This document shows, one piece after another, positions 4,366-45,552 of a stretch of DNA of 64,000 nt; the first letter of the stretch is position 1, and each line of letters starts with the position of its first letter. The translations under genes were made by a program, and so were the position numbers. The notes under the pieces are model-generated. The model was not told the DNA's origin and did no database searches. It saw only the letters and a list, made by a program, of their open reading frames with translations. The stretch is from Gnetum montanum. Taxonomy: Eukaryota; Plantae; Gnetophyta. Where the stretch lies: positions 61,629 through 125,628 of the forward strand of contig MNCI01001219.1 of NCBI GenBank assembly GCA_015680685.1. Reading direction: 5' to 3'.

Positions 4366-4399
4366 GAGTGTTACCTTGCATTAAGCCGAGTTGACGTCT

Positions 4400-7300
4400 A
4401 AATGTGGTACTGCTTCAAGTACACATGATTCACCTGATTTGGAAGTTCGTTGTCATTGATGTCCACTAGCCTAAATGCTCCGTTGCCATACACATTGATG
4501 ACTAGGAAAGGGCCCTCCCAGCTTGCAGAGAATTTGCACACTGGCTCAAGAATGGCTTTAAGGACCAAGTCTCCTTTCCTAACTGGTCGTTAATGCAGGT
4601 TGCGATGATGCTTCTCGATGCTATCGAGTGTCTGGATGCACTTCTTCTCTATTGAGTCTAAATCCATGATCTTGGACTCGTCGTGTTCAGTCTCATTTAT
4701 AACCGTGGAGAGGACCATCCACAGTGAGGGAACCTATAGTTCAAGGGGTAACACTGCTTCGGATCCATAGACTAGGCTGTAGGGCATCCTACCTGTAGCC
4801 GTTCTGCATGTCGTACAGTAGGCCCATAGCATGTAGAGGATTTTCTCATGCCATCGTTTCTTATTGCTACTAAGAATCTTATTCAGTAAATTGATAACCA
4901 TCTTGTTTGTTGCTTCTACTTGACCATTTGCTTGTGGGTAATATGGTGAGGAGAAAGATTGCTTAATACCAAGGTTATTGCAGAAAGATTTGGTTTTGGT
5001 ACTACTAAATTATGGCCCATTATCGGTCATAATAGTCATGGGAAGCCCAAACCTTGTTACTATGTTATCCAAGATAAAATGGAAAACCTGTTGAGATGTA
5101 GTCTTTCGTAGGGGAATAGCTTCGACCCACTTTGTGAAGTACTCAATGGCGATGATAATAACACTATGTCCTGCAGAAGACTTAGGCGTGATGGGAGCTA
5201 TGATGTCTAGTCCCAATCGTTGGAATAGCCAAGTGATCTGTGTGGTACGCAATTTAGTCGATGGCACGTGTATTAGATTTGCGTAACATTGGCACGTGTC
5301 ACATGTCTTAACTTTGGTAGGGCATTCTCATTCCATGTAGGGCCAATAATACCCTAAGCATATGATTTTAGCAGCCATGGCTCAAGGGGCTATGTGTCCT
5401 CCACATAGTCCTTCATGGACTTCGCTAACTATCCTTTGTGCTTGGTCATTGTTAACGCAGGTTAGCAATACCCCATCAAAGAAGCGCCTACATAGGGTGC
5501 TATCTCTGATGATGACGTATTGCCTAGCATGCTTGCGGATTGCATCCTTTTGTGCAGATGTTAACTCGTGCGGTGGTTTGCCATGTAGAAGGTAGGCTTT
5601 AATGTTGTCGTACCATTCTAGCATTCCTTTCTCACTTAGAGAAGAGATTTGCATTGCTTGGGTGACAGGATCTGTACATTTTATCATTAGAGTAGGCCAG
5701 GTGGCAAACAAATGCAGTGCAACGTTTAAAGCTAACATAGCTAGTGCATTAGCTATAGTGTTCTCACTACACAGCATGTGTTGGACATCAGTCATTGTAA
5801 ATTGTTTTAGAAGATCTTTAGCCATATTGCAATAGGGTTGCAAATGCACGGCTTTGCAAGTGTAGACTTCTATGATCTGATTGACAATGAGCATTGAATC
5901 ACCTTGAATCGCCAAGTGTTGAACATTTAGTTCTCTGGCTGCTAATAGTCCCCTAAGGAGCCCCTCGTATTCTACCACATTGTTCGTATAGGAAAACGCT
6001 AGGCGGTAAGCCAATGGACAAAAGGAGGAGAGCATGATGACGGCAATGGCACTACCGCCTCTAGTAGTCGAAGCTCCATCAAAGTGTAATTTCCCTTCGA
6101 GGCCTGTTGATGCAGGGCTTAAACTATGTACATGTTCATTAGGAAACTCAGGTTCTATCATGGCTTGGTCATTAATCGGTGATGTTACAAGATGGTTGAC
6201 TATCGCTTGGCCTTTCGTGGAAGATTGGTCAATGTAGTGCAAGTCAAATTTTGCTATGATGGCTTTCCATCGGGCTATTTTACTGTTCTCATATAAATTG
6301 TTTGTAATGGCCCGTAGGATGTTGTTCTTGCAAATTATGTTAACTTGGTTACAAAAAATATAGTGTCTACATTTCTTGAGCACAAAAACCAATGCCAAAT
6401 AGTTACACTCTACTTCATTGTACCTTGTTTCATATGCAAATAGAGTGTGACTTAGATAATAGATAGGGATTTTCGACCCGTCATCCCTCTTTTGACACAA
6501 CGATATGGCTATGGACACATCTGAACTTGCCAAGTAGATATAGAAAGGCTGATCCCTTTGTGGTGGGAAAACCATTGGCAAGTGTAGTAGTTCCTTCTTT
6601 AAGTCGTCAAAAAAACGTTGGCAGTCTTCGGTCCATTCGAAGTTAACGCCCTTCTTGAGCAAATGTTGCATAGGGTGTAATTTGTCTGTTAGCTTCGAGA
6701 TCAACCTCCTAATAAACTATAACCTACCTTGCAACCCACGTAGTTCTTTGAGGTTTGTAGGCGGTGCCAGGTTAACGATGGCCTTAACCTTGTCAGGGTC
6801 AACTCGTATGCGAACCTCGGACACCAAAAATTCCAACATGCGTCCAGTCTTGACTCTGAACACACATTTTCTTAGGTTGAGTCGTAGGTCATGTTTGAGA
6901 CATCGTTTAAGGATTAACTCTAAATCCTCTAGGTGATCTGCCGACTTCCTAGACTTGACAGCTATGTCGTCTACGTAGTCATTCAATCTATTTAAGAGGT
7001 AATCGCTAAATATATACGTCATGGCACGTTGATAAGTTACTCCAGTGTTTTTCAACTCGAAGGGCATCATGGTATAACAAAAATTTCCCCAGGGGGTCAT
7101 GAAAGTTGTAGTTAGTTGATGTTCTAGGTTGATACGGATTTGACTATATCCCAAAAACCCATCCATAAAGGATAGTAAAGTGTGTCTGGCTGTTGTATCG
7201 ATAAGTTGGTCAATACTTGGTAATGGGAAATTGTCTTTAATCATTGCCTTTTTTAGATCGCAAAATTCTATACAAATGTGTATTCCTCCCATTTTCTTAG

Positions 7301-7847
7301 ACACAACAACAATGTTCGATACCCAATCTAAGTAATCCACCACACGGATGAAACCAGCTTGATATAGCTTAGTGATTTCATCACGCACTGCCAATGCATT
7401 TTCAAGCTTAATCTTCTATGCTTTCTGTCTAATTGCTTTGATACGCGAGTCTAACATGATGTTGTGCTATATTAATCGTGGGTCTAAAGCCGACATGTCT
7501 TCGTACGACCATGTGAATGCCACAATGTGGTTTTGGAGAACTCAAGATATGTCGCTCTGCATTTGTTGGTCAAGAAGGAAACTAACCTTCAAATATTTTC
7601 TTTCTCCTTTGTGCATAACGACAGAGACCTCAGTGAGGGAATCCTCAGTCACATCACCAGCCTCCAGGTCTAGGGTTCAGGCCAAATGTTCTGGCTAGTC
7701 TTGGGATAATTTCGAGGCTGTTATGGTTATGTCACAGGAGGAGGCGTCGATGCCTATCATTGCAAGATTAGGCTGTCTAAAAGTTTCCCCGTATAGGCCT
7801 GTTAGGGCCAGGGGTGTAAGTAAATCTTCTTCCATTTGCAAACTAAC
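4400..7847 (-). pseudogene. Tat pol: RT, RH, aRH and integrase (disrupted)
   Basis: ORF 6717-7394 (RT: FMDGF.GYSQI, YVDDI); ORF 5382-6704 (RH, aRH, HEGLCGGH); ORF 5010-5267 (integrase core: LDII, YFTKWVEA, TDNG). Confidence 0.95.
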
Positions 7848-9095
7848 CTGCAAAACTACCAAGAATGGAGACAGTTATATTGCTTTTGTCAACCAAGTGA
7901 AATAATACAAGGCTTTTAGAGGTACGTATCTAAAAGGCGGCCAGTTTAAGCTCTTAGTGGACCATCACAATATGTAGAGTTTGTAATACAACACCAAGTA
8001 AGGTTTCCTAGGTGTGATTAACGTGGCAAAACAACTAATTTAGAATTTTTTGCAAACCGTAGTTAATGTAACCAAATTACGAGACGATAAGTTGTGCGTT
8101 AGTTTAGGGTATTTTCGGACCATCATTAATGCGATATCTACGAGGTTAATGATGCGATCTTTATGCTTCATGTCAAATTGACATGTCTGTGTTTCAGGAA
8201 AGTTCCACGTTGATCGGTCATGAAAACTACAAGTTTTCACCATCACGCTTATAAGTAGATATTTCGGGCTCAAAGTGGATTGTGAACGTAGCGAGGTTGA
8301 GTTAGGCTAAAGCAAAAGAAAAGCATAAATTAACAATTTCATAGAGGTTACTAAGGCGAAACAATGGCATCGAAGACTGAACGCAAATATGCCAAGTTGG
8401 CCAGGATTGATAAAGTACATGAAAGTCTAGGGCGAATTTCAAAAGTGCAAGTCGAAACTCGGGAGGCTACTCTGCTCGCCTGGTAAGTCATTCTTCACCT
8501 TCCTTGTGTGATATATGCGTTGGGTCATTTTCACTGTCATTGTACTATAATTTGTATTTATTTCGCAAATGTGCACCATGTTGGGTGTCGATACCTACCT
8601 ATGCTAGTTACACTATGGGAGTTTGTAATGTTACCCTTATCGCCATTGTCATGGATAGACCTCGCACCATCGCAAGGGTTTTGGGTGATCATGGGTAATA
8701 TCGTACAAACACACCACGTAACTGGTGAGGAGTCTAGGTGTTGTATCCTTGCGCAGTGTAAAAATGGGTTCCGTTGCCTTGCTCGTAATGGTCACGTGTT
8801 ATGCTAGGGTAAGATGCCACATCACCTTTATCGCTGTTATCATAGACAGACCTTGCACTATTGCAAGGGTTTTGGCAATTTTGGTAGTGCGTTTCTAGCG
8901 TAACATGCAATTTTCTGAGTCAAAGCAATGAGAACCTCAGTGTTGCGTGACGGATTCTTGTGAGCTTTTTCGATTTGTTTTGACATTGTTAAGATGCCTA
9001 AACAGTTTTCTAATGGTCATGTGTTCCATTGTAAAGGGTTACGCTAAAGCCTATCCTAATCGTTCTGAACATTGTGGTCGTTTTATGTTGTCTAC

Positions 9096-12000
9096 ATGCC
9101 CCCGTGGCCAACGCTCCTCCTCCTCATGCTCGTGCAGGGGAAGAGGTGGTTTGGTTTCAAAAAGGGGCTCAAGAGATCCTGTAGTTTTTGTTGTGTAACT
9201 TTAACATAATTATTTGGTTGCATCTATCGACCGAAACAACCGCCCCCATTCTGGAAACATTGTTGGTTGGGTCAACACAGAGCATTTTAACATTTCTAGT
9301 GGACGGCTCAATCGAGGCCATGGGGGGAAGAGATCGCGAACAGCATGCCAAGGGTTTGAGTTGCTTATCTTGGATTTGGGAGATGCCCAGGTTTAACTGT
9401 TATCACACCTATAACATGCTATTTGTGGCTTGTCATCTCACGACCTATTTTTAGAACCCACCTGGCATCATGTATTATGCCAGAGGGTAAGTTCTATCAA
9501 GGTATTGTGATATGTTAACTGCTATTTGATTTTGCATTAGATATGAACAGTCTTCTGTACTCTATGGCATAGATTTTTTATCAATGCAGGTGGTCTCCAA
9601 GGTGATACGGACATGTTATCTATGGTCAAAATAGCCATAAAGGAATTCACTTCCATCAGCAATGTGCGTGCTGGTGTCCTGTGACAACTAAGATTTGAAA
9701 TCCAACACTACCCTATCCAGTATGCCAAATTCTTTGTCAAGTGTAGAGACTCTAGATGGCTAGATAACGAGTGGACTTTGGATTGTCCCATCACCATTGA
9801 TGACGTACAAGAGGAAATCCCAATGTTTCCTTTGCTCTTTGGACGCAGTAAGTTACGCTACGCTGATCAACTGCGTGACCCTACAAAATGAGAATAGTGT
9901 ATGAGATTTTACTATTTTTTTGTTTTGTCTAACCTATTTTTTTTAATGTTTATAGCTAAAGAATCGTGGGAGCTCACGGTGACAACCTCTGGGTGTGACA
10001 CAGCCACCATCTTCTTCTGCTATGGTAACTTGAATGAAGCACAACGTTGGCTTTGCCACGGAGCGGCCCTAGCTGTCATAACCAATAATCTCCAAGAAGC
10101 TGGACTGATGGAGTTATTTCTAGCCATAACCCCCGATGTCACAGTAGCTGAAATGTTGGCCCTAGTCAACTCCTTTAGCGAACAAGCTGAGCATCTTCAC
10201 ACGTGTGTGCATAATGTGCATATGAGTTTTGATATTAATGCTCAACTGTTCATCAACTTTTTTGGCGTTCCTTCTAATGGTCTCCTAGTGGAAGAAAGAT
10301 CAAAAAAGAGTTCTAAACATCAGAAGGACATAGAGGAGTGGCTAGGGGTTATAAAAGAACCAAAAGGCATCTACGCTGATAAGATTAAGCTAGAGGCGGC
10401 TAATATCATTTACCCCCTCTTCTGAGCTCATGCTTTCCCCAAGCTACTCTCCCAAGGAAAAATCCTTGGCATAGAGTAGGCCTAGATCATGCGGGAGGTT
10501 ATAGAGGAGGGGACATGATATAATTGGGCCAAGCACCTTGCTGAAGGCCTACAGGCTGAAATGGTCAAGCTTCGCAAGAAGCTTGAGTCTCGTTTCAACG
10601 TGCATTTTACCTTCTTTGTAGCTTGTTTGCGGTGTTTTGTCGAATTCCTAGCGGTTCGCAGGGATGGGGTCTGGGTGCAGTAGGATCGTAACCAAATATC
10701 CAAACCATGGATTTCCCAGGTCTTCCGCACTGCCCAATCCCAAGATCCTCCTGAAGGTATCAAGGAGCCATTTTCACTAACAACTAGGTATCGGGTGGTG
10801 CCTCCCGTCTGAGGCTAAGACAGCATGGGTGGGGCGCCTCCTTCTTACACCGGTAGTGTGTCAAGGGGAAAGTGCCTGGCAACAAAAATAGTAGCTTCAT
10901 CGGTTCAGTAGAAAAAACGTTGTCTGATTGTAGAGTCTCCCAGCCCGACTGGTGAAGAGGGAAGGAAACTACAGATTAAGTTTCATAGGAGCCATCCCCC
11001 AGCTGGTAAGTAGAGAAATGTGTAATTAGTTTATGTATGTTATGCTATGTATAAACATTGTTGCGTCACGTAGCACTCATGAAAAGTGAATAAAATTGTT
11101 GTTTTTGTTAACTGTGATGCATTTTACAGGAAAAGAAAAAGATGTAGAGGGACTGACCCCTAAAAAAGGGGCCATAGTCCTGCGGCATGGAGAAGGGACC
11201 CTAGTTTTGGAAAAGGAGGCCCCTGTTGACAATGTGGGCAGTACGCAGGCTCCTATGCCTAAGAGGAAGACAAGCGTAGAAGATGCTACGGCCATTTTGG
11301 ATAGGCTGGAAAGGGAAAAGTAGCTCATTGCTAGTGAGTTTGGCCACTTACCTTTGTCTCAAATTTTTCCTTTGTCTACTGTGTTATGTTTAACTTGTTT
11401 TGTTTGCGTAGTAGGCACTTATGATAATAGTGGCGTACCTTCATCAGCAACCCCTACTCATCATTGGGCTGAGGCTTCTAACAAATTTGCTTTCATGGAG
11501 GGAATTGTGAACGATATGATTGGTTGCTTGGAGCGAATTGATCCAGAGATTGGTATGTCACTATTGCTACGCAGAAATTATTGAAATTGTCACATTGTGT
11601 TTCCTATCATGTCTAATTGACATCTTCATGTCAGAGCATCTCGCCTCAAATGGGATCCTAAAGAGCTTATTGACGTGGATGCTACTCCTGAGCCCTCACC
11701 AGAGGTGACCAAAGTGCCACGCCGCATTTATGATGAGATGCATAAATGTGTGTTACGCTTGACCCTTTCTCTATGGGAGAGTCAGAACGTCAATGAAGAC
11801 CACTAGAAGAGGCTGCAGAAAGCAGAAAAAGAGAAAACGGCCCTAACTACTAGGGTTGAGGACCTTGAATCTAGGAATGAATTTATACAAGCTTGAGATA
11901 CCAATGACGAGAATTGGCAGACAGTTGTGATTGACTACGCCTGCTATTGGATGGTCGTCAGGAACAACATCCAAGCCAACTATGAGTTCATCGAACAACA

Positions 12001-12695
12001 GATGCAAATGGATCTCCTAGCCTAGAAGAACCAAGACTGGAAGGATTTCAGTGCTAGGGTCTAGGAATGGGGACAGACACAGAAAAATCATAAACACATA
12101 TATAAACAGGAATGTGCTGCCTACTATCGACATTATAGAGATTCCACGATTGAGGCACGGTCCCTACGGCTGTTCCTCGATGTCATTGATGCTTCTGGAG
12201 CGTATGAAATGTTTCAGGAATAAGTGATAGTGAGTGCCTCCCCTGAGAGAGAGATGACCCTCCTCAGCAGGGAGACTACTGTCCCTTCCTTTTTTCCTTA
12301 ACCGCCTTGGTGGACTCCTATGGAAAAGGAGAAGGTAAAGGCTGGAATTGATCTAAGGGATGGCATTTGGGCAAAGCTCATTGAGGACAAGATTATGCAA
12401 TGTCCGTTAGTCAGCCTAGAGCAAATTCCTTTCGCGACCAACGTAGGACCATCACAGGTAAGCTACACGACTGTTGTATTATTTTTACGTGTGATTTTGA
12501 CGACGACGCTAACGTTTGCTTCATGTCATTTTGTAGGATTAACACAAAGAAGATCCCCATGAGGAGGAACCTCACAGAGATGATCACGCCCATGAAGAGA
12601 ATCCACTCGAAGGAGATCCTCATGAGGAAGACTCTCATGAGGCAGATGTGGAGTTGGATGATTCAGATGGAGGTGGCAAGAAAGGGAATGTATAG
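9096..12695 (+). pseudogene. Multi-exon antisense accessory gene inside the Tat element (~940 codons; plant-transposon-protein-like domain, coiled coil, acidic tail), with premature stops
   Basis: Phase-consistent GT..AG introns at 9391-9454, 9487-9572, 9899-9955, 11006-11129, 11334-11414, 11553-~11636 and 12458-12536. They join ORF pieces 9214+, 9901+, 11096+, 11354+ and 12320+. First exon/start uncertain. Confidence 0.75.
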
Positions 12696-13149
12696 AATAG
12701 CGATATTTGTCAAACATTTTGTTGTAATGAAAGGGAATAAAGGATAACTTTTGTGGTTTTTTAAGTTGATTAATGGCGATTGTAAAAGAAATTTTTTTTT
12801 GTTTATGAAAAGGAAAAATGTGTTGTCAAAAAGGTTACACGTTTTAGGCCACTACAGACCTACGATAGTTTAAGGCCATTTCGGGTCAGGCCAGCGCGCA
12901 TGAAAAAGAATAAATAGAATCTCCAGTTTTAGGCCATAGTGGGTCATAAATAGTTTAAGGCCATTTCGGGCCAAGATGCGTATAAAACAACGTAACGGTA
13001 ACGATGCGACGAGAAAGAATGTAAATTGTGTAACAATAAAGAATGTGGACTGATACGATATGTCACACTAACGTGTTTATTTACTAGCTCCACAGCTACT
13101 TCTTGATTATTTTTAGGTTTGGCAATGCGTATGGACAAGGAGGCTTATT

Positions 13150-16100
13150 ACAGCATTCCTCTATGCTACCATCTCCTTCCTAGAAGGGTAGTTCAACCCA
13201 AGTCAAGCTTTCATTGGCCACTGTGTCAGCCTGTTCAACTGTTGGGACAGGAGTTTGGTCTTCAAGGATTTCATTCCTCTATGCTACCATCTCTACGTTG
13301 TTGACAGCTTGAGGGGTCATCTTATCACCATGGATGATCACTTCCCCTCCTGCATAGGGCAAGTGGATTTTTTAGTGAATGGGTGATGAGACGACCCTTA
13401 GTTGAGCCAACCAAGACCTCCCTAAGATTAGGTTGAAGCCAGGAATCTCCTCGATGACAATGAACACTGTGTTTGTGGGGAATTGATCCCCTGCTACGAA
13501 GTTGATCTGCATTGTTCCCTTAACTTGCACTCATGTCCCGTTAAATGACTTTAAAAATGACGTTATCATGGGATTGATCTGATTGATCAAACCCAGTTTC
13601 TCCACTATGGGAAATGGAATGACATTGGCAGTGGCCCCGTCATCTACGTGTACTCTTCAAATCCTATATTGGCTGACTCGGATAGTGATGAACATGGGCA
13701 CCGTTGTCACCTGACCCTTTTCTGGGTCATCCTTAATGGACTCGGCATGGAATGTCAGTTGGGAAGACCATGGTCTTTTAGCAACAGGGGGAAGCATGAT
13801 CGAATGGATTTCTTCTTCATCCACTAGCAAGCTTTCGTCCACGAGTATGGACATTAGCATACAAACCATAGCTTCACGATGCCTTTGGAATGTCATCAAC
13901 AAGTCATACAGGCTCAGTGTCATATTTTTCTGTTTAAGATCCTGCTTGACTTGCATAAAAGAGCTAAGGAGATTATGCCCACGGTCTGGTTGTTTGTTGC
14001 CCTTCTCTTCTTCCATTCGTCCCAGGAGACGAATCTCTCGGGGAGGAATGATTTCTGGTTGAGGACTGTGTTTTCTTGGGCAGGGAGAAGATGGCCGCAT
14101 CTATGTAACGTCGTCCTTTTCAGGGGGAGGAGAAGCCAAGGGTGCTGAGGCGAGAGGCGTAGGCTTAGGAAACCCCAACGTAAGGTGGTCCTTGGCTACT
14201 TTGTCTATCGTACTCCCTTCTCCTCTTGTTGTAGGTTGAGGTTGGGGCATTGACTTAGATGTTTTCCCCCACGTAGTAAAAGTAGCTAACGAATTTGGCA
14301 CTCTGATGACAAAGGATGCCTTAGGTGTGGGCGCAGGCTGGGCCATGGCTTTAACAACACTTGGCTGTGGGATAGACGTCTGAGGTGGGACTCGGAGGAC
14401 AAAAGGCTATTGCAGCGCCATGCCCATCAATGTTAATGGGTTTGCTGTTTGAGGTGGGCGAGGAGGCACATCAGCATGAAGGGTTGCTTCAGCTGTGCTG
14501 GGCTATTGCCATCCATACCCACCACATTGATAGTGTACCCTGCATTATTTACATTTAATGAGTCTTGGTACACATGCATAGACTGGTTTTCTGGACGAAC
14601 CAGACTACTGCTGTCTAAGATCAGCTTACCTTGATCAATCATGCATTGAATGTCATCTTTCAACGCCCAACAGTAGTCCATGTCATGTCCACACAACTGG
14701 TGGTAGTCACAGAAATGGTTCATTTAGCAAGGCCAAGGAGGGATTCTTGAGTAGCTCACAATGCTGTCTGTGGCCTTGCTAAATGAACCATTTCCTCGGA
14801 CACCTTCTTATGTTGAATGTGACCAGTTCCTAAAAGTTTCTGCAGAAGCTCTGAAGGCTTTATAGGTAGAGCCGTATATTTTGAGCAATCTTTACGCTCA
14901 AAATTAGGCTTCGGCTGGGTCAATGTCATAGGAGTTGATGTTGCTTGCTGATCGACATTGTTTGAGCTAGTCATAGCCTCAGTAGGAGCCATGGTTGTTC
15001 TCTTGTTGTTATTTTTCTTTTTGGCTTCTTTAGCTACGGTTGCCACTATTGTTGCGACCTTATCCTTATCTTTACTTTTGTTGTGGGTATTTTTATAGAC
15101 CACATACGCTGGGTCTTTGCTAGCCTCTGTTGCGTCCTGGATGCTCTTAGTCTGAGTGAAGGCTTGGATGAGGGAGCGGGGAGTGAGGTAATACAATTTA
15201 TACTTAATGAAGTCGTTGACTGCCCCCTTGAAGATTGCTAGCAAATGGGCCTCTGCGATGGGTTCACGGATTTCATTCAAGGTAATGCTTCACCCTTGTA
15301 TAAACTTTTGGACTAGCTTGAGTGGATCTTGTTTAACTCCCATTAGCAGATCCAGTGTAACCTCTGGCTTTAGGTTATATCTTAAAAAAGTTACAAATTA
15401 AGTCAGTAGCTCTTCCAAGGTGGAGATGGAAGAACGTGGAAGTGCTCAATACCAATCTAAAGATTTACCCATTAGGAACATAGCAAAGGCACGGATGATG
15501 ACATGCGGCCATTGTTGCAGCAATAGTGACTCTAACTTGAAAGTAACTAGATGAGCATTGGGATTGCCTTTCCCATTATATTTCGTAAAATGGGGAAGTA
15601 ACATCCTAGGAGGTAGTGACAAGATGGGTACTGTCGGACTGATAGGATCGTCATGGTAGAAATCCATGACCTATATTATGTCAAAACCGGCAGCCTTGAG
15701 GCATTTAACCTCCTCGGTAAGGCTTTGAATAATCTGGAAGGCTTGATCCAAACCCAAGGGTGAAGAGGTTGATTATGGAATAGCAGGGGAAGCCACAATT
15801 AGTGGCGGGATGGAGGCAATGGCATGACTTGTGAGTGATGTGGTCGGAATTGTCCCTACAGGTGGTACCGCCTGTGTCATCCACCACTCGGTAGGTGGTG
15901 CGGGCGAGGCAATAATTATTGATTGTGCCATGGGGTATGCTATTTACATAGCCGGGGGCACAAACAATGACGTTGTAGTTGGATTTACTGCCTGCAAGGC
16001 TTGATGTTGATGATGAACGAGATGCGACATCTGCGTAGGTTGTGCTACCAGGGATGACGTACTTGGAGCCCACCATGCGGTAGTGGCAAGTCCTGCTGTT

Positions 16101-16850
16101 GATTGTAGTGGTATGGGAGAAAAAGCTGGGATGAATGTAGGAGCTGTGTGTAGTTGCCAAGTGGGTACTGCATGCACATATGGTAACATAGGTGTAGGCA
16201 TGTGATGCAATGGGTTCGCTAACTACGGCTACGAAGGAATGGTCTGTGAAGGGACGACATTCGGAAAAGGGGCCGGAGAGAAGAAATGCTGATGTGACGC
16301 TTGCACCACACGGTCGGTAGTAGACAATGATAAAGGTGTAGTGACCATAACAAATGGATCTGTAGGGGATGTTGTGGAGGGAGGAGCCATAACAAAGCTA
16401 ACGTGACTACCCCCCTCGGAGTGGGCATCTAAGTCTTCTTGCCCATCGTGGAGCGCTTCATCACGGAACATCACATCTCATTGTTCCATTGACACCCTGG
16501 CCATTAACAGTTGATCCAACATCCACTACTGCTGGTCCTTCAGGGGTATAGAAGCGTTAAGTGAAGGAACAAATTTTTTCCTGTTACAGTAAATGAACTT
16601 GTATTCGCGTTTCTCTTTGATTTCATGTGGGTACATGGGCAAATTCGCCATAAATTTGGCACAGAGGAAGTTGTAATGTTGCGTTTGTCGAGCGTGCCCT
16701 TTAGGATCTTTATTGTGAATCCTAAGGGACCGACGCAGCTGCATCGGGCTGGTTTGTGGCTCGACAGTAGCAGGCATAGCCTACGTCGTCAAGGGGGTTT
16801 CGAGACTAGCGGTGGGAATGACAGTAGTTATCGCAACCATTCTCTACGTA
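13150..16850 (-). pseudogene. Tat gag and protease (disrupted)
   Basis: Gag-like KYNGKGNPNAHL..F (15446-15667); CDYHQLCGHDMDYCWALK Zn motif (14433-14723); protease VDDGATANVI (~13620-13650) and FNLILGRSWL. Confidence 0.85.
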
Positions 16851-17062
16851 GCTAGAAGACAATGATGATGAGGATAAGGATCACAAAGGAAAAAGGGGGC
16901 TAAAGGAAAACGTGGGCTTTTTGTCCTACTGGATTCCAAAGGAATCGTCGGAGCGACCGATCTGTACCACATGATCATGTAAACAACCACATAGGTATCA
17001 CGTTTGCATTAGTTAATAATGAGTACAGACAGCTTACAGGACTACCTGTGAAATGCAGATCA

Positions 17063-17089
17063 GAGGTTCAGTCCCTCCTTCTAGCACCA
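17063..17089 (-). promoter_or_regulatory. Primer-binding site, tRNA-Asn type
   Basis: Minus strand TGGTGCTAGAAGGAGGGACTGAACCTC, complementary to the plant tRNA-Asn(GUU) 3' end as recalled (..GAGGTTCGACCCCTCCTTCTAGCGCCA). Confidence 0.75.
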
Positions 17090-17095
17090 GAAAAC

Positions 17096-18363
17096 TATAA
17101 CAACAGAAAACGTCGGTTGCTGGAAACACTGATAGTTTTTTCGTGTACACAGTTCCAACCTCGGATCCGTACGAGGGCCGTGCTAAAGAGAACGGATTTG
17201 AGGTGCCCTGAATGATCTTGCCGATTAGATAGGGACTTATTTAATCAGTAAACTTGTCACCGATCATATAACGAGGAGACAATTTAATGTAAAAAAAATA
17301 ATGTCGATTTGACGAGAAAACAAGATCTGCTTCAAGATCAGATCTTGAAGACAATGACAACAATGTAAACTATGTAAAATGACTATAAAATCAATGTAAG
17401 TAAGGTGCAATGGATTAAAGAATTTTGGAAATGTACAATCCCGAGATCGGGGATTTATCTTATAGACAAAATATGATAAATACAACAGGATTTGTAAGTG
17501 GATTCCAGTTTGGACGAAGTGTCTGCCACTAATAAGAAGCTATTTAGAGATTAAACAAGCAAGGGCCAATCTACCTTGTTCACAGCCAATCTGGGTGCAA
17601 GGGAGTCGAGCTTGAAGCAAAATGCTCGCTCACTTGAAATCTCTAACCAAAAGCTTCTCTTTGTCCCCGTCAATGCTCTTTTGTTGCCAACTCTTTCTTG
17701 TCTTCTTGCTAATCTTTTTGCCAAAAATTGCTAACCCCTTGAGCATTGCCCATTGGGGTATTTATAAGATTAGGGTTAGGAGAAAAATGTGATTTAGATG
17801 ACGCATGTCTTAGGCCCATAGAATGTCGTTGACCTGATGTGCTGTAGCTGAGGCTTGTGACGTTATGCTATGCTACGCTCTGAAGCGTAATATAGCGTAA
17901 CCACCCTTGTCTTTAGTGTTGACGGATTTCCAGATCTTCGGTAGCAAGGTAATCCCGCAACTACACTGTGATACGTTGGGAAGCGTATCGTGGCGTAATG
18001 ACTGCTACTGCTTGAATTTTGTTGTCCTTATTGTTCTGGCTAAATCAACTGTGCTGCCTGCGTTACGCTGCATTATGCTGCATAGCGTAACATAGCATAA
18101 TATGCCAAAAGTTAGGATTTTTGACATATGGATAACTTGCAAAGTTGAAGTGTTGTCATTGTGCATCCCTTGTTCTATTTTATCCTCTTGAAGTTTGCTA
18201 CGTTGAGCTGCGTAGTGTAGCGTAGTAGGCCCTTAGCCAAAAGAGAAAACTTGCTGAGATGTGCCCATTGCCCAGATGTTTTGACGCTGTACTTGTGACG
18301 ATCCTTGCCCAAACTTCGAGACCTTGCTAAATCACCGAGGTCTTGAAATTTCACGGTGTTTCA
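17096..18363 (-). repeat. 5' LTR of Tat element (~1.27 kb)
   Basis: Starts TGAAACACC on minus strand at 18363 and ends 6 bp from the PBS; homologous to 1693-2742. Confidence 0.9.
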
Positions 18364-18592
18364 AAACATTTTTATTGTACTTTGCATATGCTAATTAAAA
18401 CTACTAGACAAATAAAATTGTCCATTCTATTGAGAATTCTAGACTCACCTTCTTGATAATTATTCCAAGTGAGTGATTGAGAAAGACTGAAATTATATCC
18501 AAAATAAAAACATCTATCAAACAAAACTATTCTTTAAAATGATTTTATATAATTTTTTTTTTTGAAAAAGATAGGTGAAATCTTTGACCTGT
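18364..18592 (-). mobile_element. Old LINE fragment, C-terminal part of APE endonuclease
   Basis: Minus strand LIDVF...TWNNYQEGESRILNRMDNF, matching the L1 endonuclease TWxN...RIxxRLDRF motif. Confidence 0.75.
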
Positions 18593-32430: not shown

Positions 32431-32630
32431 TGTGAAGATAATGCAAACATTAAATATATGGCATATGACAAAGTAAGAGGGTGATGATATTAACATGTAC
32501 CTATTCAAGGTACATATGAGAGAAATCCTATAAATAATAATGATGTATATGAGAGATGATAAGGAAGAATCTCTAAAATCAAGGGATTTGTCAAAAGCTA
32601 ATTTGGGAATACTGTTACATCACTTCATGT

Positions 32631-35600
32631 GCACCTAGGCAATGACCAAATCAAAGCAAGGCTACTATGGGTCGCCGCACACCCCCACTTCTGGGAGGAG
32701 GGCCCTTCCCAGGGAGGTTTGTCATCGCCATCGATCATGGACTGGATAAACACCAGTCGAGGTTCGGTGCAACCTAGTTCCCCTCCCGAGGGGACGAGGC
32801 CAATACGCAAACAGGGGATGGTGGTATCCCTACCAGCAGCCAAGGTTGGATGACCAGACAACAACACCCACCATCACAAGGCTACGTAGCTATTCGTTGA
32901 TTTGGGAGTGCAGCCCACACTCCAGGAAGTTTACCACCGACACATGTCTCCATGAAGGTCCTCTCATGGAACTGCAGGGGCCAGGGTACCCCATACAAAC
33001 GGCATACCCTGCAATGTATGGTGCAAGACGAGAGGTGCGATATTGTGTGTTTACAAGAAACGAAACTTCAACAGATGGAAGCCCATGTGCTACAATGGTT
33101 GGGGTGGCACAGCCATCTAGCGACCAGCAGGGGGCACGCGAGAGGCCTTGCGATCCTCACCAAGATGGACTCGTATGCCCTGGACACTTCTGATCGGTGC
33201 ATCACGGTGCACCTGCCGGGGCCGAATGTGTGGGTAACCAATGTTTACAGCCCTCAGGGATGGCAAGGCCACCTTCAGGAGCTTTCACGGGTCATGGGGC
33301 TTATCCCCAACAATGCCAGATAGTTATTGATTGGAGACTTCAACCAAAGGCTCTACAACTGGGAGAAGACAGGAGACAGCATGGCGGAGCCCCCAGGGGT
33401 GCTCAAATTTCTCACGCTATTACAGCATAAGGATCTCTCCGACATCGAAATCGCAGGGTGCAAGTACACCTAGAGCAATCACAGACAAGGTACAACGCGA
33501 GTTCAATCCCAGATTGATCGGGTGTGGGTCAATAAAGCGCTACTAACCAATTGGGAAATCCATGCCTACGGTGGTGCTTGAATGGCCTCTGATCACCAGC
33601 CCATCCTCTGCCAGCTGGAGCCCAACGTGCATCAGAGCCCCTGCCCATTCTGGTTTGAATGTACCTGGCTATGCAAGTCGTGGCTGGGTGAGCTAGTTCA
33701 GAACATTTGGCAGGGATATCCGACCTCGGTGGACCCACGCAATTTTTTAAAAAATTGGTTAAAGACCCTCAAAAGTCAAATTAAAAATATCGGAACGGCA
33801 GAAAAATATAGTTTCAAAGGATACCGAACTCAAATCCAGGCCAAGCTACAAGTAATTCAGAAGCAACAGGAGCAAGGGGCCGACCACACCTACAAGGAGC
33901 TTGCCCTCCAAGCCGAGCTACAACTGCTGCACCAAGAAGAGGAAGAATATTGGTGCCAACGGGCCCACATGCAGTGGTTGAGGGCAGGGGATCAGCACAC
34001 GAAATTCTTTTTTACAGTGGCGAAGGCACACCGTGGAACTCTCCAATGATTACTGCAGTGTTTTATGCAAGGAGAACCAACGCACCCACACTCTGGCACG
34101 AACAGACTGCTACAATACTGGCAGCAAGTCTGGAATTGGCAGCCAACGGACCCGATTTCAGTGCTAGTGCATAAAATTTTAAATCTGGCTGATAATTCAC
34201 AGCTTCTACAACCTTTCTCGCTCTAGGAGCTCCAAAGCGCACTGCAGGATATGCCGGCAGATAAGGCCCTGGGGCCAAACAGGTGGCCCATTGAATTCTT
34301 CCGTGACTTCAAAGACATCTTGGGGGCGAACCTGCTTAATGCTTTTAACTACATGCTAGCGTGGCGTCAAGTTCATAAAGAAATCAATTGCTCACATGGT
34401 CCTACTGCCAAAGATGGAGAAGCCCACATCCCCAGGACATTTTTGCCCCATCAAAGTCTGCAACTCGCTGCTGCGTTTATTTTCTCGCATGCTTGTTGCC
34501 AAGCTGCGGCCCCTCATGCCATGCCTGGTGAGGAAAAACTAGGCTACTTTTATGAAGGATCATCATCTTCAAGACCAAGTCCTGCTGCTACAGGAAATTC
34601 GGCACTCTCTTCGGGTCGCTAAATTACCGGGCCTCTGCATCAAACTTGACATAACCAAGGCTTACAATTCCGTGAGTTGGGCAACACTGAGGACTGTGCT
34701 GCACGCGAAAGGCTTCGACAAGGCTTTCGTGGAGCTCTGCCTGCAGATTCAATGGGGAGGGCGGTACTTGCTGGACATTGATGGACACGTGTGGGGCTTT
34801 CACGGGACCGGACGCGGGCTTCGTCAAGGCGACCCCCTCTCTCCACTCCTTTTCCTGATGATGATGGACCTCTTGCAAACATATTGTGCTGAAGAAGGGG
34901 TCCAGGGGCTAAATATGCATGGCATCCCATGCCTCACCGCCCATTACGCGGATGACACCATGATCTTCACCAGGGCCACCATGCCGCAGGTTGGGGTGTT
35001 AACAAGGGCGCTGAATCGACTTCAGCGGGAAGTGGGCCTGGCACCCAACCCAGGGAAATATGCGTTATATTTCACACACACCCACCCTTTGGTATGCAAC
35101 AAGGTCATTCAAATCCTGGGGATCTTACTGGGAGAGGCGGACGACAAATATCTAAGCATCCCCATCCACAACTAGCACCGATTGCAAACGTGGTAGGCCC
35201 TTATTATGAGAATTCAAAAACGCACGATGCACTGGACGAATAGCTTCCTGTCTGGTAAAGGGAAAATCATGCTAGCATCTACGGTGTTGGGGGCCATGGT
35301 AAGGTTTGCAACCTCGATGGCCTCTTTGCCCTCTGGAGTCGCCACAAAAATTGATGCAATTATCCACGATTTTGTGTGGTTGGGCAGCAAGGGGGGGAAA
35401 AAGATGCACTTGGTGGCTTGGGCCAAAACCGTGCAGCCTCGCATTGCGTGGGGGGGGGGGGGGAGGGGGGGTTGGAATCCTCCCTTTCACGGTTGAAGTA
35501 GCCTTAGGAAGACAAAGACTTCTTCGGCGACTTTCTGCAACGAATGAAGACCCCTCCCTCTGGGCGCAAATCCTACGGCAGAAATATAGCCCCTAGGCGA

Positions 35601-37327
35601 TGTCGAGCTCCGATTCTCATGTTTGGAGGCAGTTATGCACACATGTAAGGTTGCTGGGCCACGATGATGAGATCTCCCTGCATCCTTGACAACTCCTCCA
35701 GAAACAGTTCATGATCAATCCACATTGGATGCGGCTCTGAAAGGGCATTCTCCCGGAGAAAATCAAAATGTTTGTGTGGCTGATCCTTCACCATGCCCTC
35801 CCCATGTGGGCCTTACTGCAGACATGTGGCCTGGCAATCAGTAACCATTGCCCACTATGTAATCAACACACAGAAACGTTACAGCACTTCATGCATGAGT
35901 GTCACGTGACCAGGCAATTCTAGCGTACAGCAGGTCTTCATTCCCCAGATTTCTCTAGCAATTCGTCGATGCTGGTGACACTCTGGATCCTATGGAGGGC
36001 CAGGAATGACTACATCTTTAAAGGGGCAGCCCTCCCGCCTTCGGCAGTGCTATCTGGTAGGATCCGAAAACTCTGGCAAGATATTACCATTGCAATGGAT
36101 CTGCATGTCCACCTCGAGCCACCTGTGACTGCCCTCCAACGTCGCCTGGATCTTTGGCGCTGGGTCTCGCGCATGAGGTGGATGCAAATTCTGCCCAAAA
36201 TGGTGGCTGACTCGGAGATGGACACCCATTCCTTCTACACAAATTGGGGCGAGGAGGCTACTGTGTTTAGGGGGCATCAGATCCTTATCACAGTTGATTC
36301 AGTCGCAGCCGTGATCGGAGCGCCCATCAGAGGTGCACACATCCCCCCAATCGCTGGTTCCCATGCGGCGGCTATTGATTTCTTCTCGGGCCCCATCCCC
36401 AAGACGGCTAGTGGACACATCAAGGGGACGGCCCTCTCACCCGACTGGAAGGCGGCGGCGGAGTTGGTCGAGCGTTGTTTCATCCATTCTAGTTTGCACC
36501 ATAAACTGAACGGGGTGCACTTCAGGTTCCTTCAGTGCATGTGTGACGAAACTCCCATCAACCTCCCATTGTTCCTTTGGGAGTCCCTGTGGAGGCGTCG
36601 TCCTGGCAAACATCCGGGGGTGATTCGGGCCCTATGGTTGGCCAGTATTCCCAACCTGCCGCTTCAACCAACGAATCATCTAGAGCCGAGGCAGCAGCAC
36701 AAGCAAAAGAGGCGGGTGTCTAGTGCGGGGGTCACTATGGCCGAAAATAGAGCCGTGGTCACCCCCCTTGACGCTATCCAAGAACGGGACCCGCCGAGAC
36801 CAACCTTGGAGGAGGAGATGCCAATGATAAAATATGATACCTCTGGCAACACAGGGGGGCAACACCCGACATCCCCTACTCAGTTGTCAATCCAGACGCT
36901 GCTTTGGATTGAAGACGGCCTCAAGGACCATATGATAGGCATTGGCTAGATAATTGAGGAAAACCAACGCTACATAGCGGCCGGGCCAGGGCAGCCAGGC
37001 CCTTGCACGCACCTCGTCAAAGAGAACCAACAGTCCAGACACAATTCTCCCGGAAGGTAGTCGACGGGGAGGGGGTGGCGCCTCAGGGGAGGGGGGTGCG
37101 TAATTGGTAATTCGTAATTCGGGAATGTGCACGAGCTAACGACCAGGGCGGGAAAGGCCGTCTACCTGTGGGGATGCCTGTGGCGGGGCGGGCCTTGGGG
37201 ATTTCTGGGTGATTATTCTTGGCCGGTGTGGGGCCAGCGGCCCTGGCCTGTGCTGTACAGCGGTATAGCTCCGTTTTTTTGGAATATAAATTCACTCGAT
37301 CTTTTCCGGAAAAAAAAAGAGAAAAAA
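32631..37327 (+). mobile_element. 5'-truncated L1-like LINE, ORF2 (EN-RT-zf-RVT) with extra C-terminal domain; A-rich tail
   Basis: MKVLSWNCRG/CLQETK (32952), IGDFN, ASDHQP, LRQGDPLSPLLF, YADD, CPLC..ETLQHFMHEC, LWILWRARNDYIF; tail gaaaaaaaaagagaaaaaa 37309-37327. Confidence 0.95.
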
Positions 37328-37580: not shown

Positions 37581-38804
37581 ATTAACTATAGTGCCGTTAA
37601 TTTAAACAAAAAGGTTCGCATGCCATATCGTGAAGAAAGCAGGAACATAGGAGACTAAGATATTCTTAGGCAAGTATTTTTACCATTTGATTTATTTAAT
37701 ATTTGTTTAAAAAACTTCCCATTGAGGGGGGGAAGAAATTCAAATCAATGGCACGATTATTATATTATCACCCCATATATATATATATAATAAACCATGG
37801 GAGTGGCCATCCTATATTTGTATTTAGGTGATATGGAATTGAAGAAGGCACCTAAGTTGTAGTTCTTTTACCCTTCAAAATTAGGAGGCATGTATTTTTG
37901 ATATTTATCCCAAAAAGAAGAACAAGAGGGAAGAAAAAAGGCCCAGGCGATAACCAAAGCAAGTTGAAGATATGACCTCAAGACTACAACAAGTGTGACC
38001 TAACATATGGCAAGGCACACTATACTTGAATGCAATTTCAATTTAGATGGCAAGATCAATTCTCAAGAAGATGCATCATCGAGAAGAATGACCTTAAAGA
38101 TTATGCAATAGAGCTCATGCACAATAAGGTCATACTCTTGCTAACAAACATAAATGAGGAGTAACCAAAAGACAAATCAAGTCTTCAACACCATGCAACA
38201 AGATCAAGGAGAGACCTAGCATGGTGATGCCATCAACAAACAAGGAGATCTCCACCAATGCTTCATTTAAAAGATAACATAGAAGCTAAGTAGCTTCACA
38301 ACCAAGTTGGTAAATATAGTTGCATAATCCTTATGTAAATGCATGACATGAAATAGAATAGTGTATGCATCATGGAGGTTTATTAAATGACAAGTATTAT
38401 GTTGTCATTAAGGGGGTGATTGTGAGGATAATGCCAACATTAAATATATGGCATATGACAAAGTAAGAGGATGATAATATTAACATGTAGCTATTCAAGG
38501 TACATATGAGAGAAATCCTATAAATAATATGATGTATATGAGAGATGATGAGGAAGAATCTCTAAATTCAAGGGATTAGTCAAAAGCTAATTTGGAAATA
38601 TTGTTACATGACTTCTTGTGTAAATATGAACTAATGTGAATGGAAATGCAGTGCCTCATTGCTTATCTTGGTTTGGTTTGGGGTGTGGACCAACTCCTCA
38701 TTTCTATGCATTCTATATGTTCTGTCATAGAGTTTGATGTTTGGTTATTTTGATTCTTTCTCATTTCTCAATTTTTCTTTGTCTCAATGCTCTCAATCCT
38801 TTCA

Positions 38805-41409: not shown

Positions 41410-44400
41410 TATTGTGTTGGCGCATTGTCTTATTTACATTTCATCTTCTTTAATACAATCAATTGGAAATTCTATCATATTAAAGTCTCTATCGAAAAAT
41501 ATTTAAAATTTCATGCTATAATTCAATTATAGCTACACAATTATTAGGAGCATAAATGCTACATACCTTGAAAAGAGTGCTAGGATCGCTAAAAATGGCC
41601 TTAATAGCTATGTTAGCATTATCACATCCTCATTGAACCATCTTACTAATCCAATGATAATGAATGATAATAGAATCACCAACTTTCTAAAAAACATGTT
41701 TTTTAGAAATACAGCTACTATTCAATAATATATCATTAGTAATATGAGTAACGGTAACATTGGAAATTCTGTTATCTTACAATAAAATTCAATCATTATT
41801 AAATGGTTTTCAGAAAAAATTTCTAACATAAACATGTTGAAGTATGTCAATCAAACTTTAGACATTTTAAGAAAAATAATCATGGTTAAGTGGGGGAGAA
41901 TGCCCCCATCCTATTTGATGTGTCGAGACCTATATTGTCTTTAATAATCATAATCTTAGACTTACCATCTCCTATCTCAACATTAACTACTTGTTGCATG
42001 TCCATGTGAACATGTCACACCTAAGGTATTTGTTTGATGGGATTTTTGCTTGATCCTACCACATCATTGGCTTTTTCTTTTTTTGTAATGGACTTTAAGG
42101 CTTGCTTACTCTACATAAGATTTTTTCAATTTTGTAATATTATTTTTACGTTAATATAATATGAGTTTGAGTTGAAAATAAAAACACTAACAACTAACAA
42201 TTTGTTATGAAAATCTATTTATGTACTCAAGACTCCACTTCAGTAAATATGATGGTAAGAATCTGATAGATTCACTTGTTTAGAAGTGTTGAGTGCAGAA
42301 AGAAAAAAATAGAACCTCGTGAGTTTGAAAATTGATCCCCTCATAGGTTTTAATGAAACATTGTTCAACCAACTTCCTCTACCTATTCTTATATCAAAGC
42401 ACTTCATTCAGGAGGAAGAGTAGCATTCTCCAATCCACAATGATCTATATTCCACACCATCTCCAACAACGAAAGTTGAAAAAAATTGGGTAGCATCCTC
42501 AGCAAAAAAGATGAATCTAAGTGCCTCGATTGCTCCCATCTTCTAAATGAGACAAAGTTGCAAATCATTCAATCAATAGCTTTCTGGGTAGCCTTAGGTG
42601 GGGATGTAATCCTAACAAAATAGTGGATCATGGCAACACAGATAGACTTAGCCAATAGTGCTTTGCCCTTGCGAGAGTGAGAAATATTTAACTAAATGGA
42701 ATTTTCTATGAATCTTCTTAGTCAAATGTTATTAGGTTTCACAGTTATCATAGTTGTGGTAGTTTTGCACAAGGATTCTAGCATAAACATCGGTCTCATT
42801 TCCTAATGTAACATAAAGTTGGGAAGAAATGGTGGCAACAATGTAGGCTAAGCTACTTGGAGAAAAGCTCCAAAGGTGATCACAATGTAACAATAGCAAA
42901 GGTCATGTTATCTTCCTATAGTGGGCAATGCATAAGTTAACAAACATAACTCCTAAGTCAGTGATACACTCCTAGATCAAAGAGGTCTTTATCATATCAA
43001 CAATGATGAAGAATAAATAAGTGAAATCCCTTTGTGGAATGGGAAGAACTTACAAGCTTCTTATTATTTGAGGGAGCAAACAATGAGCTGAGCTTTAAAA
43101 TTAGAAGTAAAGCCCTTGACACTTGGCAATAAGGATCCAAGACAAAGCTTCTTAATTTAGTAAGTCATATGCCTTAGCAACATTTAAACTTAACTAAAAA
43201 ATATCAAAATTAAACAAATAAAAATTGAAATTTTATTATGTCTATAGACCCTTTGAATCTATTATGTTATAATTGAAAAGAAAGATGATCTACCACCAAG
43301 AAAACCTACCTAGTTAAGAGCCACATTCATTCGATATAAAAAGATTTAACTTAATACACATAATAAGGAACTAGAATTGCTCACATAAACGAACTAGCTT
43401 ATAATTCAACTTTCTTCATACATATGTTAAGGCTTTGTAACTTTCCAACAAATCTTTTGTGATTCTTGGATATAATAAAAATTTCTAGTTTCTAGTTTCC
43501 ATAATTCAAAAAAATGTGATCTTGGATATATGTTTCAACAACAAAACCTACATGTTTAGGAACCACAATCATAAGAAGTAAAGGTGACAACAACAATAAT
43601 CTTAATCAACCATCTGTATAGAATATTGCAAATGCTAAAATATTGCAAGCCTATAAAGTAGAGGTAACAATGCCTAAGCTACTATATTTCTTTAGAACGA
43701 AGACAATTCTATGGTTATTTGATAACAATGCCATCACTATTTGATGTATAGTGAATATGCGAAATTACTTAAGCTGAGTAAGCGTTGTCCGTTAGTATCA
43801 AACACAGCAGAACCAAAGGTAACAATGCTTACCATGCAAGCTACATCGAGACGGTACGTCAGAGAGAGAGAGAAACCGCGTTTGGACCCTGCATCATTGT
43901 TTTTCTTTAGTGCAACGCAAGCCGGCCCAAACAACTCAAATTCAAGATAGGATAAGCGCCCGTGTGTTTTGCCGTTTTTGTTAACGCTCTGGCTAACCCT
44001 GAACCAACCTATATGAATTATGAAATTAGCCATGGCGTATGAATGCATCCACTGCATGGACACAGTACTACTGAATATTGGCATTCAATGACACAGTCCG
44101 CGCAGCTCCGTTGATCGACAATGGCCTTGGCGTTTCTGTTATACCGCTGCGCAGGCATAGCTTGCTTGGTAAAGCCGCATCGGCACGTCTCTCTCTATAA
44201 AGGAATGTTAAATGAACAGCAACGAACACTGAACACAAGCACAAGCATAACAGCAGAGCACAGAGCAACGCAACAGGAAAAGAACCAAAAACAAGAGTAA
44301 GATGACGACGAAGACGATAAGCAGCAAGAGCATGGGAATGAGGCGCAGCGTGGTTTCTGCAGGGATGGTGATTGCGTTCGTGTGCTGGGACTGGTGCACG

Positions 44401-44446
44401 GGATTGGCGCATTTCCATGCGCAAGCGGCGGCGGCAGCGACGTTCA
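41410..44446 (+). repeat. Copy 2 of tandem duplication (LTR tip + old LINE 5' part + PG promoter + PG 5' end); copy 1 is ~30977-41393 with later insertions
   Basis: Long collinear similarity, e.g. 31080~41499, 32200~42600, 39050~43085, 40210~43810. Confidence 0.9.
43770..44201 (+). promoter_or_regulatory. Polygalacturonase proximal promoter, TATAAA at 44196-44201
   Basis: Blocks ATGCTTAC.ATGCAAGCTAC, TACGTCA, CCCTGCAT, GGATAAGC and TCGGCAC are shared with the paralogous region 50445-50790 and mostly with 40070-41140. Confidence 0.65.
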
Positions 44447-45552
44447 ACGTGAGGAGCTACGGAGCCAAAGGTGACGGCACCAGCGACGACACGCGAGCCT
44501 TCACGGCAGCGTGGGCGGCTGCTTGCCAGTGCTCGCCGTTGGTGTCAGACCCTACGGAGATGCTCATTCCAAAGGGAAGGTACCTGGTGGGCCCCGTCAC
44601 GTTTTCGGGTCCCTGCCGGAGCCACGTACGGGTGCACCTGCTGGGTACCATAGTGGCCCCCACCGACGCAACGCTCTTCAATTGCGGGGACCACTGGCTG
44701 CAGTTTGCCAGCGTGGACGGCCTCACGGTGGAGGGCCCCGGTGCCGTGGACGGACGTGGCCGTTCGTGGTGGTCCCAGCGGCCGAAGGCATGCGCTCAAG
44801 GCCCAACCTCGTTGCGCTTCACGGCCACCAACAACACCCTGCTCCGTCGCGTGACGTCCATAAACAGCAAGCAGTTCCACGTCGATTTCAACGCCTGCCA
44901 CGGAGTGCGGGCCCACTACATTACCATAAGGGCTCCCGCCGACAGCCCAAACACCGACGGCATCCACGTCGGTGAATCCTCCGACGTCCGCATTTTCGAC
45001 GTCAACGTGGCAACCGGAGACGACTGCGTGTCGTTGGGTCCCGGCACACGCGATGTGAAGGTGAGGCGCGTGCGCTGCGGTCCCGGGCACGGCATCAGCA
45101 TCGGCAGTCTGGGCATGTTCTCGTCCTTCGATGTGGTCACCAATGTGACCGTGAGCGACGCCACTCTGCGCGGCACCACCAACGGCGTCCGCATCAAGAC
45201 GTGGCAGGGTGGACGCGGCATGGCCCGCGACATCGTGTTCCAGAACCTTCGCATGGAAACGGTGAGCAACCCCATCGTTATTGACCAGCACTACTGTCCC
45301 ACCGGAAATGACTGCACCGCCGGCAACTACGCCGGCGTCCGCGTCACCAATGTGGTCTACAAAAACATCACGGGTGTCTCAGCAACCTCTGCGGCGGTGG
45401 CGTTTTCGTGCAGCAGCTCGTCTCCCTGCACCGGCATCCGTCTTGAAGATGTGGACCTGTCGTCTGCCACCCCCAACGTTACCGCTTCGTCTCTCTGCAA
45501 CTTTGTCACGGGCTCTGCTGTCGGCGTCGTCAATCCCAGACCGTGTTTCTGA
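44302..45552 (+). CDS. Polygalacturonase (glycoside hydrolase family 28), intronless, probably secreted
   Basis: 416-aa ORF with FNVRSYGAKGDG and the four PG motifs SPNTDG, GDDC, CGPGHGISIGSLG and RIKT; hydrophobic N-terminus (true start could be a downstream Met, e.g. 44332). Confidence 0.96.
   Translation: MTTKTISSKSMGMRRSVVSAGMVIAFVCWDWCTGLAHFHAQAAAAATFNVRSYGAKGDGTSDDTRAFTAAWAAACQCSPLVSDPTEMLIPKGRYLVGPVTFSGPCRSHVRVHLLGTIVAPTDATLFNCGDHWLQFASVDGLTVEGPGAVDGRGRSWWSQRPKACAQGPTSLRFTATNNTLLRRVTSINSKQFHVDFNACHGVRAHYITIRAPADSPNTDGIHVGESSDVRIFDVNVATGDDCVSLGPGTRDVKVRRVRCGPGHGISIGSLGMFSSFDVVTNVTVSDATLRGTTNGVRIKTWQGGRGMARDIVFQNLRMETVSNPIVIDQHYCPTGNDCTAGNYAGVRVTNVVYKNITGVSATSAAVAFSCSSSSPCTGIRLEDVDLSSATPNVTASSLCNFVTGSAVGVVNPRPCF

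Follow-up and report, generated by a model that had tools for sequence, protein, structure and literature searches.

The window analysed here, a stretch of 64,000 nucleotides from Gnetum montanum (Gnetophyta), carries on its forward strand a copy of an L1-type LINE in which the second open reading frame (ORF2) continues, downstream of the zf-RVT zinc finger, into a further domain that appears to be distantly related to an extra ORF of Athila LTR retrotransposons. The features of this copy are the following, L001 being a second LINE locus described below.

32632..37327, forward strand: L1-type LINE copy; left edge placed where the 32431-32631 repeat ends and the contigs of the family begin (32632/32644)
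32952..33620, forward strand: AP endonuclease (APE) domain of ORF2 (PF03372, E 2.1e-7; 36% identity to the L001 APE)
34363..35175, forward strand: reverse transcriptase (RT) domain (PF00078, E 2.1e-17; 36% identity to the L001 RT)
35750..35920, forward strand: zf-RVT (CCHC), in the same frame as the extension (PF13966, E 2.7e-13)
35969..36160, forward strand: post-zf-RVT motif LWxLWxxRNxxIF and a linker of ~60 residues (from the sequence, the motif-domain spacing and bridging contigs)
36161..36660, forward strand: putative PF20167 (Transposase_32)/Athila-type accessory domain, in frame with ORF2 (from PF20167, HHalign and identity to L001)
36701..36715, forward strand: basic KQKRR patch that may be a nuclear localisation signal (from the sequence)
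36716..37060, forward strand: low-complexity tail leading into a short heptad-like helix (heptad pattern by eye)
37061..37327, forward strand: 3' UTR and A-rich tail (37310-37327); other copies leave the element at 37317

The order of the Pfam domains, APE, RT and zf-RVT, is that of ORF2 in the plant L1 clade, and the A-rich stretch at 37310-37327 agrees both with the 3' tail of this clade and with the A-tail that a first-pass annotation, made from the letters alone, had placed after the frame. Judging from its sequence, the copy is likely 5'-truncated, and a Pfam scan of its 5' frames gave no ORF1 with DUF4283. Upstream of the extension there are 11 stops (five in the 483 codons of the APE part, three in the 366 of the RT part and three in the 123 of the zinc-finger part) together with about two frameshifts, one of them near 34360-34400, ahead of the RT domain; the window copy is thus dead. 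Around this old and decayed copy, no target-site duplication of 10-20 bp was found at 80% identity. A 200-base repeat, 93.5% identical between its two occurrences, lies directly 5' of the LINE (32431-32631) and again 1.1 kb 3' of it (38421-38620).

Elsewhere in the window, a Tat-type Gypsy LTR element occupies 1693-18364 on the reverse strand, with 1.05-kb LTRs that are 89% identical and the pol order RT-RH-aRH-INT, which the accessible text of PMC6317226 links with the angiosperm elements Ogre and Retand. The long 5' region of this element (9944-17314) has no Pfam match, and the element was discarded as a candidate donor of the LINE domain, no such domain being visible there. At 44251-45549, on the forward strand, an intron-free and GC-rich polygalacturonase gene (GH28, E 1.5e-94) stands amid AT-rich repeats; its exact protein was absent from the protein collection under the four starts tried.

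The interval 35969-36949 is open over 326 codons and contains, in order, all the motifs quoted in the first-pass annotation. Not one of 20,000 base shuffles of this interval was free of stops (mean 12.5), and its remaining five frames hold 7-22 stops each. Since the zf-RVT is found in this same frame, cut off only by a single TAG at 35921-35923, the ATG at 35969 probably encodes a methionine within the protein, and the frame is the C-terminal end of ORF2, not a separate ORF. Both the uninterrupted frame and its fusion to a LINE ORF2, as originally claimed, are therefore borne out. The domain would be translated on ORF2p as one protein with APE and RT, and its codon-position GC (0.57/0.47/0.66) tracks that of the RT (0.54/0.40/0.63). 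The stop at 36947 is a sense codon in at least 35 contigs, which represent 87% of the depth in public DNA run X3, and with it the frame continues to the next stop, at 37058; the 36947 stop is thus not family-wide, and the ORF of the family likely ends near 37060. At 35738, too, where the stop looks family-wide, other copies have a sense codon. In a simple hydropathy scan, the best 19-residue Kyte-Doolittle mean was 1.56, in the domain core, so that no clear transmembrane segment, as would be expected of an env-like membrane protein, was seen.

Regarding the nature of the domain, residues ~65-230 of the frame have PF20167 (Transposase_32) as their sole Pfam match, with E values of 0.0012-0.008. 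This match runs over model positions 21-170 of 177 with few gaps, but its 16.5-19.2 bits fall below the gathering threshold of 45 bits. A search with phmmer against 1.84 billion proteins yielded four matches, two of them in the domain: P0003, 40% identical to it over 68 residues, and P0005 (E 2.3e-4, 22% identity over 138 residues), which is itself PF20167-like (E 1.5e-5). The other two, P0002 and P0004, were dropped as relatives of the domain, being repeat or motif-only matches. An alignment-based search gave 36 matches, of which 35 make up the stand-alone family of P0005, pulled in through the P0005 row, and the last, P0024, was rejected as an independent case because it repeats the zf-RVT region of L001. 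Members of the stand-alone family are 59-89% identical to the first alignment row; several start at their own methionine ~35-45 residues before the domain, LINE motifs occur in none, and their contigs measure at most ~1.2 kb, a length within which the LTR setting of the family is not visible. Word-indexed protein searches with the window protein gave no relative at near or longer lengths, scans of the viral_contigs and genome_contigs collections gave no relative of the domain, and neither a full-length intact ORF2 with the domain nor a host gene with it turned up in the protein searches.

An HMM of 31 stand-alone proteins, built without LINE rows, assigns 28.0 bits to the window domain, against at most 2.7 among 1000 shuffles, a test that is partly circular, as P0005 was found with the window domain; with the same HMM, the L001 domain reaches 16.5 bits (best of 1000 shuffles, 8.1). 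HHalign of the window domain against the stand-alone family returns 97.6% (E 3e-12) over 155 columns. PF20167 is matched by 17 of the 31 stand-alone rows and by 18 of the 33 rows of alignment A2, which match no other family, and an H-x-G-[LV]-I motif lying beyond the Pfam stretch is also common to the window domain and the stand-alone family. On this profile evidence, the domain appears to fall in the PF20167/Athila group by distant homology and is not a member by the Pfam threshold; the pattern recognised in the first-pass annotation is upheld as a profile relationship, and the assignment at family level is not. As for activity, the 14 residues invariant in alignment A1 are mostly hydrophobic or structural, without a DDE-like set, so that the name 'transposase' says nothing about what the domain does.

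The concordance of Pfam, phmmer and HHalign, together with the motif just mentioned, the extent of the PF20167 match (~150 of 177 positions, few gaps) and the fact that this family had been named ahead of any search, makes it quite improbable that the extension is a native, fast-evolving C-terminus of the LINE whose likeness to PF20167 arose by chance or convergence. Such an explanation would draw on the sub-threshold score and on the behaviour of the L001 domain, which alone has no Pfam match at E<=1. It would also draw on the ESM Atlas matches, which point to PF20167/PF03078 with scores of 0.81-0.89, a range often reached by shuffled proteins, and on the comparison of folds. The structure model attained a pLDDT of 43 without an alignment and 55 with 33 rows, and this poor model gave no Foldseek match at E<=0.001 in PDB and BFVD; the best VIA-align Z was 4.5, and PDB sequence searches returned nothing under E 0.3.

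P0003 sits in locus L001, a 13.9-kb contig with a long LINE in which Pfam identifies a DUF4283 ORF1 (PF14111, E 2.3e-21), APE, RT and zf-RVT, followed, in the frame of the zf-RVT, by a PF20167-like domain. Taking into account that L001 was found by the domain region and not by its RT, the LINE setting of this second domain is an independent result. The post-zf-RVT motif is separated from the first Trp of the domain by 62 residues in the window and by 65 in L001, and the later motifs keep step. Identity between the two elements amounts to 36% in the APE, 26% in the linker between APE and RT, 36% in the RT, 31% in the zf-RVT and 32% in the domain (160 columns compared), and in none of these parts did any of 2000 shuffles reach the observed score. 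The C-terminal tails show no relationship, their score being reached by 234 of 2000 shuffles, and the KQKRR patch is not found at the same place in L001; the last ~130 nt of the window LINE resemble the L001 3' end in a local alignment made without a control. The L001 copy has stops at the post-zf-RVT motif and within the domain, and its frame changes near 5890-5910, just after the domain, continuing for ~640 codons with 10 stops, as compared with 36 and 73 in the other frames. This last part corresponds to the following feature.

L001, 5944-7866: acidic, charged linker leading to a DnaJ J-domain at about 7555-7750 (PF00226, E 7.8e-9)

The A-tail of L001 follows near 8010, just after the J-domain, which in this copy has a damaged HPD motif. 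No LINE bearing a J-domain came up in the open literature searched. After the zf-RVT, Pfam gave no match to RVT_3/RNase H in either the window LINE or L001, and these two lineages, the window family and L001, are the only ones from which the fusion is known.

The presence of the domain throughout the window family is evident from contigs of four public DNA runs, one for each of four organisms, which cover 30 of 30 bins of the element at a likeness of at least 80%. Among the 32 contig pieces listed, four include both the post-zf-RVT motif and the beginning of the domain, and they come from three of the four organisms (runs X1, X5 and X6). Three of them are ungapped (X1 rec 5, X5 rec 13 and X6 rec 21), their 390-412 bases differing at 48-53 sites (~12% divergence), and two of the three also extend across 35921; the fourth contains 16 gap letters. 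Four contigs of run X5 exit the element at 37317, after the domain, into other flanks. Other copies thus do not end before the domain but carry it in register ahead of the 3' end, and the domain is an established component of this multicopy LINE family. A one-off nested insertion or a 3' transduction, leaving an LTR fragment behind a single LINE copy in frame by chance, is refuted by L001 and the bridging contigs and retains a negligible probability. The window is indeed a pile of repeats, and 3' transduction is generally known to be common in LINEs, but the domain is present in many copies, in four organisms and, with the same spacing, in a LINE that is only 26-36% identical, and its codon-position GC follows that of the RT.

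A few contigs skip the domain. In two contigs of X5 and one of X6, position 36136 is joined to 36665, removing 528 nt in frame and almost exactly the domain, and in X1 another such joint links 36126 to 36695. These joints have a depth of 8-13, against several hundred around them; the 528-base skip represents either a deletion copy or a domain-less sister form.

A difference at 36387, present in at least 35 contigs (84% of the depth in X3) and in six of seven RNA reads, would on its own give an in-frame stop at residue 140, and if no neighbouring base differs, most recent copies would be without the C-terminal half of the domain. A second difference in the same codon is judged likelier, because the best-conserved half lies downstream (the 40% identity to P0003) and because two RNA loose ends 3' of residue 140 keep the frame, with five synonymous and four replaced codons among 19, as aligned by eye. 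These same observations speak against the proposal, improbable overall, that the domain was once useful and is now dispensable in recent copies, or split off from ORF2p by the stop near residue 140 or as an ORF3 translated by reinitiation. This proposal could further invoke the TAG at 35921 in the window copy, the stops of L001 at the motif and in the domain, and the rare domain-less joints. However, a fixed stop would require its re-loss in the window copy, and two differences per codon are common at 12% divergence; the stops of both copies probably result from decay, as they stand where Trp or Gln would be expected, and the seemingly family-wide stop at 35738 is, as noted above, sense in other copies.

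RNA reads on the element are few (9, 64 and 37), nearly all of them (6, 63 and 35) are less than 90% alike, and they lie on both strands; they are thus attributed to low-level transcripts of relatives and not to the window copy. None of these 9, 64 and 37 reads crosses the junction.

Taken as a whole, the locus can with good confidence be regarded as an L1-type LINE ORF2 with an in-frame C-terminal domain of PF20167/Athila type, which likely derives from one old fusion and is likely a non-catalytic nuclear helper. The same domain, at equal spacing and with an identity near that of APE and RT, in L001 argues for one old fusion kept by selection; purifying selection on the domain is probable, as it is about as conserved as APE and RT. 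What emerges, in two distant lineages, is a plant L1 LINE bearing an accessory domain that LTR elements also carry. The plant L1 LINEs described so far have an ORF1 with DUF4283 and an ORF2 composed of APE, RT and zf-RVT, to which some add a C-terminal archaeal-type RNase H (Smyshlyaev et al. 2013, as reported in the accessible parts of PMC4686597 and PMC5203782). The window and L001 elements resemble them in this domain order, in the A-rich tail and in the addition of a module at the C-terminus of ORF2, the likeness in the DUF4283 ORF1 resting on L001; they differ from the RNase H-bearing forms in that the added module is PF20167-like.

As to reports of the PF20167 family, sunflower Athila 14 ORF(+) is given as an extra ORF with PF20167 Transposase_32/PF03078 ATHILA in the available text of PMC11728184, where section 2.5 mentions a predicted nuclear signal for the PF20167 ORF, and the Athila ORF-1 domain is recorded in 16% of Athila elements in that of PMC6317226. 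The window domain is like these ORFs in its distant sequence match over most of the domain, its basic patch and its helical tail. They differ in that the Athila extra ORF stands alone in an LTR element, whereas the window domain forms part of a non-LTR ORF2 and falls short of the family threshold; self-comparison of the window revealed no LTR pair around it. Searches of the open literature brought up no report of a LINE with a PF20167- or Athila-type domain. Plant LINE subclades were reportedly surveyed by Heitkam et al. in 2014. In the open literature, as far as the texts are accessible, the term PF20167 leads to sunflower LTR elements and to bacterial gene clusters.

With regard to origin, transfer of the domain from an extra ORF of an LTR element to the LINE, by recombination or template switching, is favoured by a modest degree. 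The carriers of PF20167/PF03078 described in the accessible text of PMC11728184 and PMC6317226 are Athila elements only, the stand-alone relatives have their own methionine ~35-45 residues ahead of the domain and show no LINE motifs, and no host gene with the domain turned up in the protein searches. These data weigh against the alternative of a genuine, old fusion whose domain has a source other than an LTR element, each kind of element having taken it from a host gene or another transposon, possibly a DNA transposon, or the LINE lineage itself having been the donor. This alternative is rather unlikely, even if a precedent can be argued from the archaeal-type RNase H, which plant L1 and Tat elements have in common and which the latter gained several times according to the text available of PMC6317226. 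It also takes in the lack of a visible PF20167-like domain in the Gypsy element of the window, and the pattern of identities, with 30% between the two LINE domains and 18-25% between these and the stand-alone family, fits any direction of transfer.

L1 ORF2p binds its own RNA and acts at the target DNA, so that a fused domain would act on the particle in the nucleus. It is tentatively proposed that the domain would enter the nucleus together with the RNA-protein particle of the LINE and there bind chromatin or host proteins, thereby steering insertion or blunting silencing. The part after the domain would be exchangeable, with a short helical tail in the window and an acidic linker plus J-domain in L001. 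A chromatin or host-protein role is favoured by the predicted nuclear signal of the Athila homologue and by its predicted host contacts, AlphaFold screens in Arabidopsis having predicted that Athila-domain proteins contact many host proteins (PMC13547354, accessible part). The same part of this source reports a coiled-coil pentamer as the predicted assembly of VANC and of the Athila domain alike, as well as a structural link between the plant mobile domain (PF10536) of MAIN/MAIL1 and the VANC anti-silencing proteins of MuDR. The window domain would be comparable to plant mobile domain and VANC proteins in being a transposon-borne accessory domain acting on chromatin. An I-T-x-D-x-V-x-x-x-x-G-x-P-x-x-G stretch within it may resemble the plant mobile domain (PMD), although PF10536 had no match in the window domain at E<=10, nor was there a structural match with the weak model (pLDDT 55).

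A further precedent is found in insect R1 LINEs, in which a C-terminal tobamovirus-like SF1 helicase has a proposed anti-silencing role (PMC4686597, in its accessible text). As in the window LINE, a foreign domain has there been fixed at the C-terminus of ORF2; they differ in that R1 belongs to another clade and host and carries a viral enzyme domain, while the window domain looks non-catalytic and is shared with LTR elements. Extending the proposed nuclear role, an unreported old clade of plant L1 elements might employ the Athila-type domain of ORF2p as a chromatin-targeting or anti-silencing module of the PMD/VANC kind with a swappable tail, which is unlikely as it stands. If this were true, the swappable tail would be a coiled coil in one lineage and an Hsp70-recruiting J-domain in the other, an accessory role in an envelope or capsid would be excluded for the domain, as LINEs form no virus-like particles, and a module would have been exchanged between two classes of retrotransposons.

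Plant LTR elements vary widely in their extra ORFs, whose roles are called unknown or speculative in the accessible text of PMC7264820 and PMC6317226, with envelope-like functions under debate. The finding of a related domain on the ORF2 of a LINE, which copies itself at the target DNA without particles, conserved about as well as APE and RT, narrows the field to a role internal to the cell, and suggests that the domain likely works there as a helper and not as a virus-like envelope. The LINE fusion, in which it is one domain of one protein, offers a simple test system, and it adds a new module, and in L001 also a J-domain, to the short list of gains at the C-terminus of LINE ORF2.

Two observations on the coverage of the element can be added. 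The stretch 32843-33023 of the window has a summed contig depth ~10 times that of most other bins in all four DNA runs (14,635 in X1). The excess may come from a short, non-autonomous derivative or from sequence that a larger LINE family has in common with this one near the start of ORF2. In the 3' UTR, ~20 poly(A) RNA reads stemming from a diverged relative accumulate over 37180-37300 in run X12, and six of the X12 reads on this stretch show a 45-base back-step, which is likely a tandem duplication.
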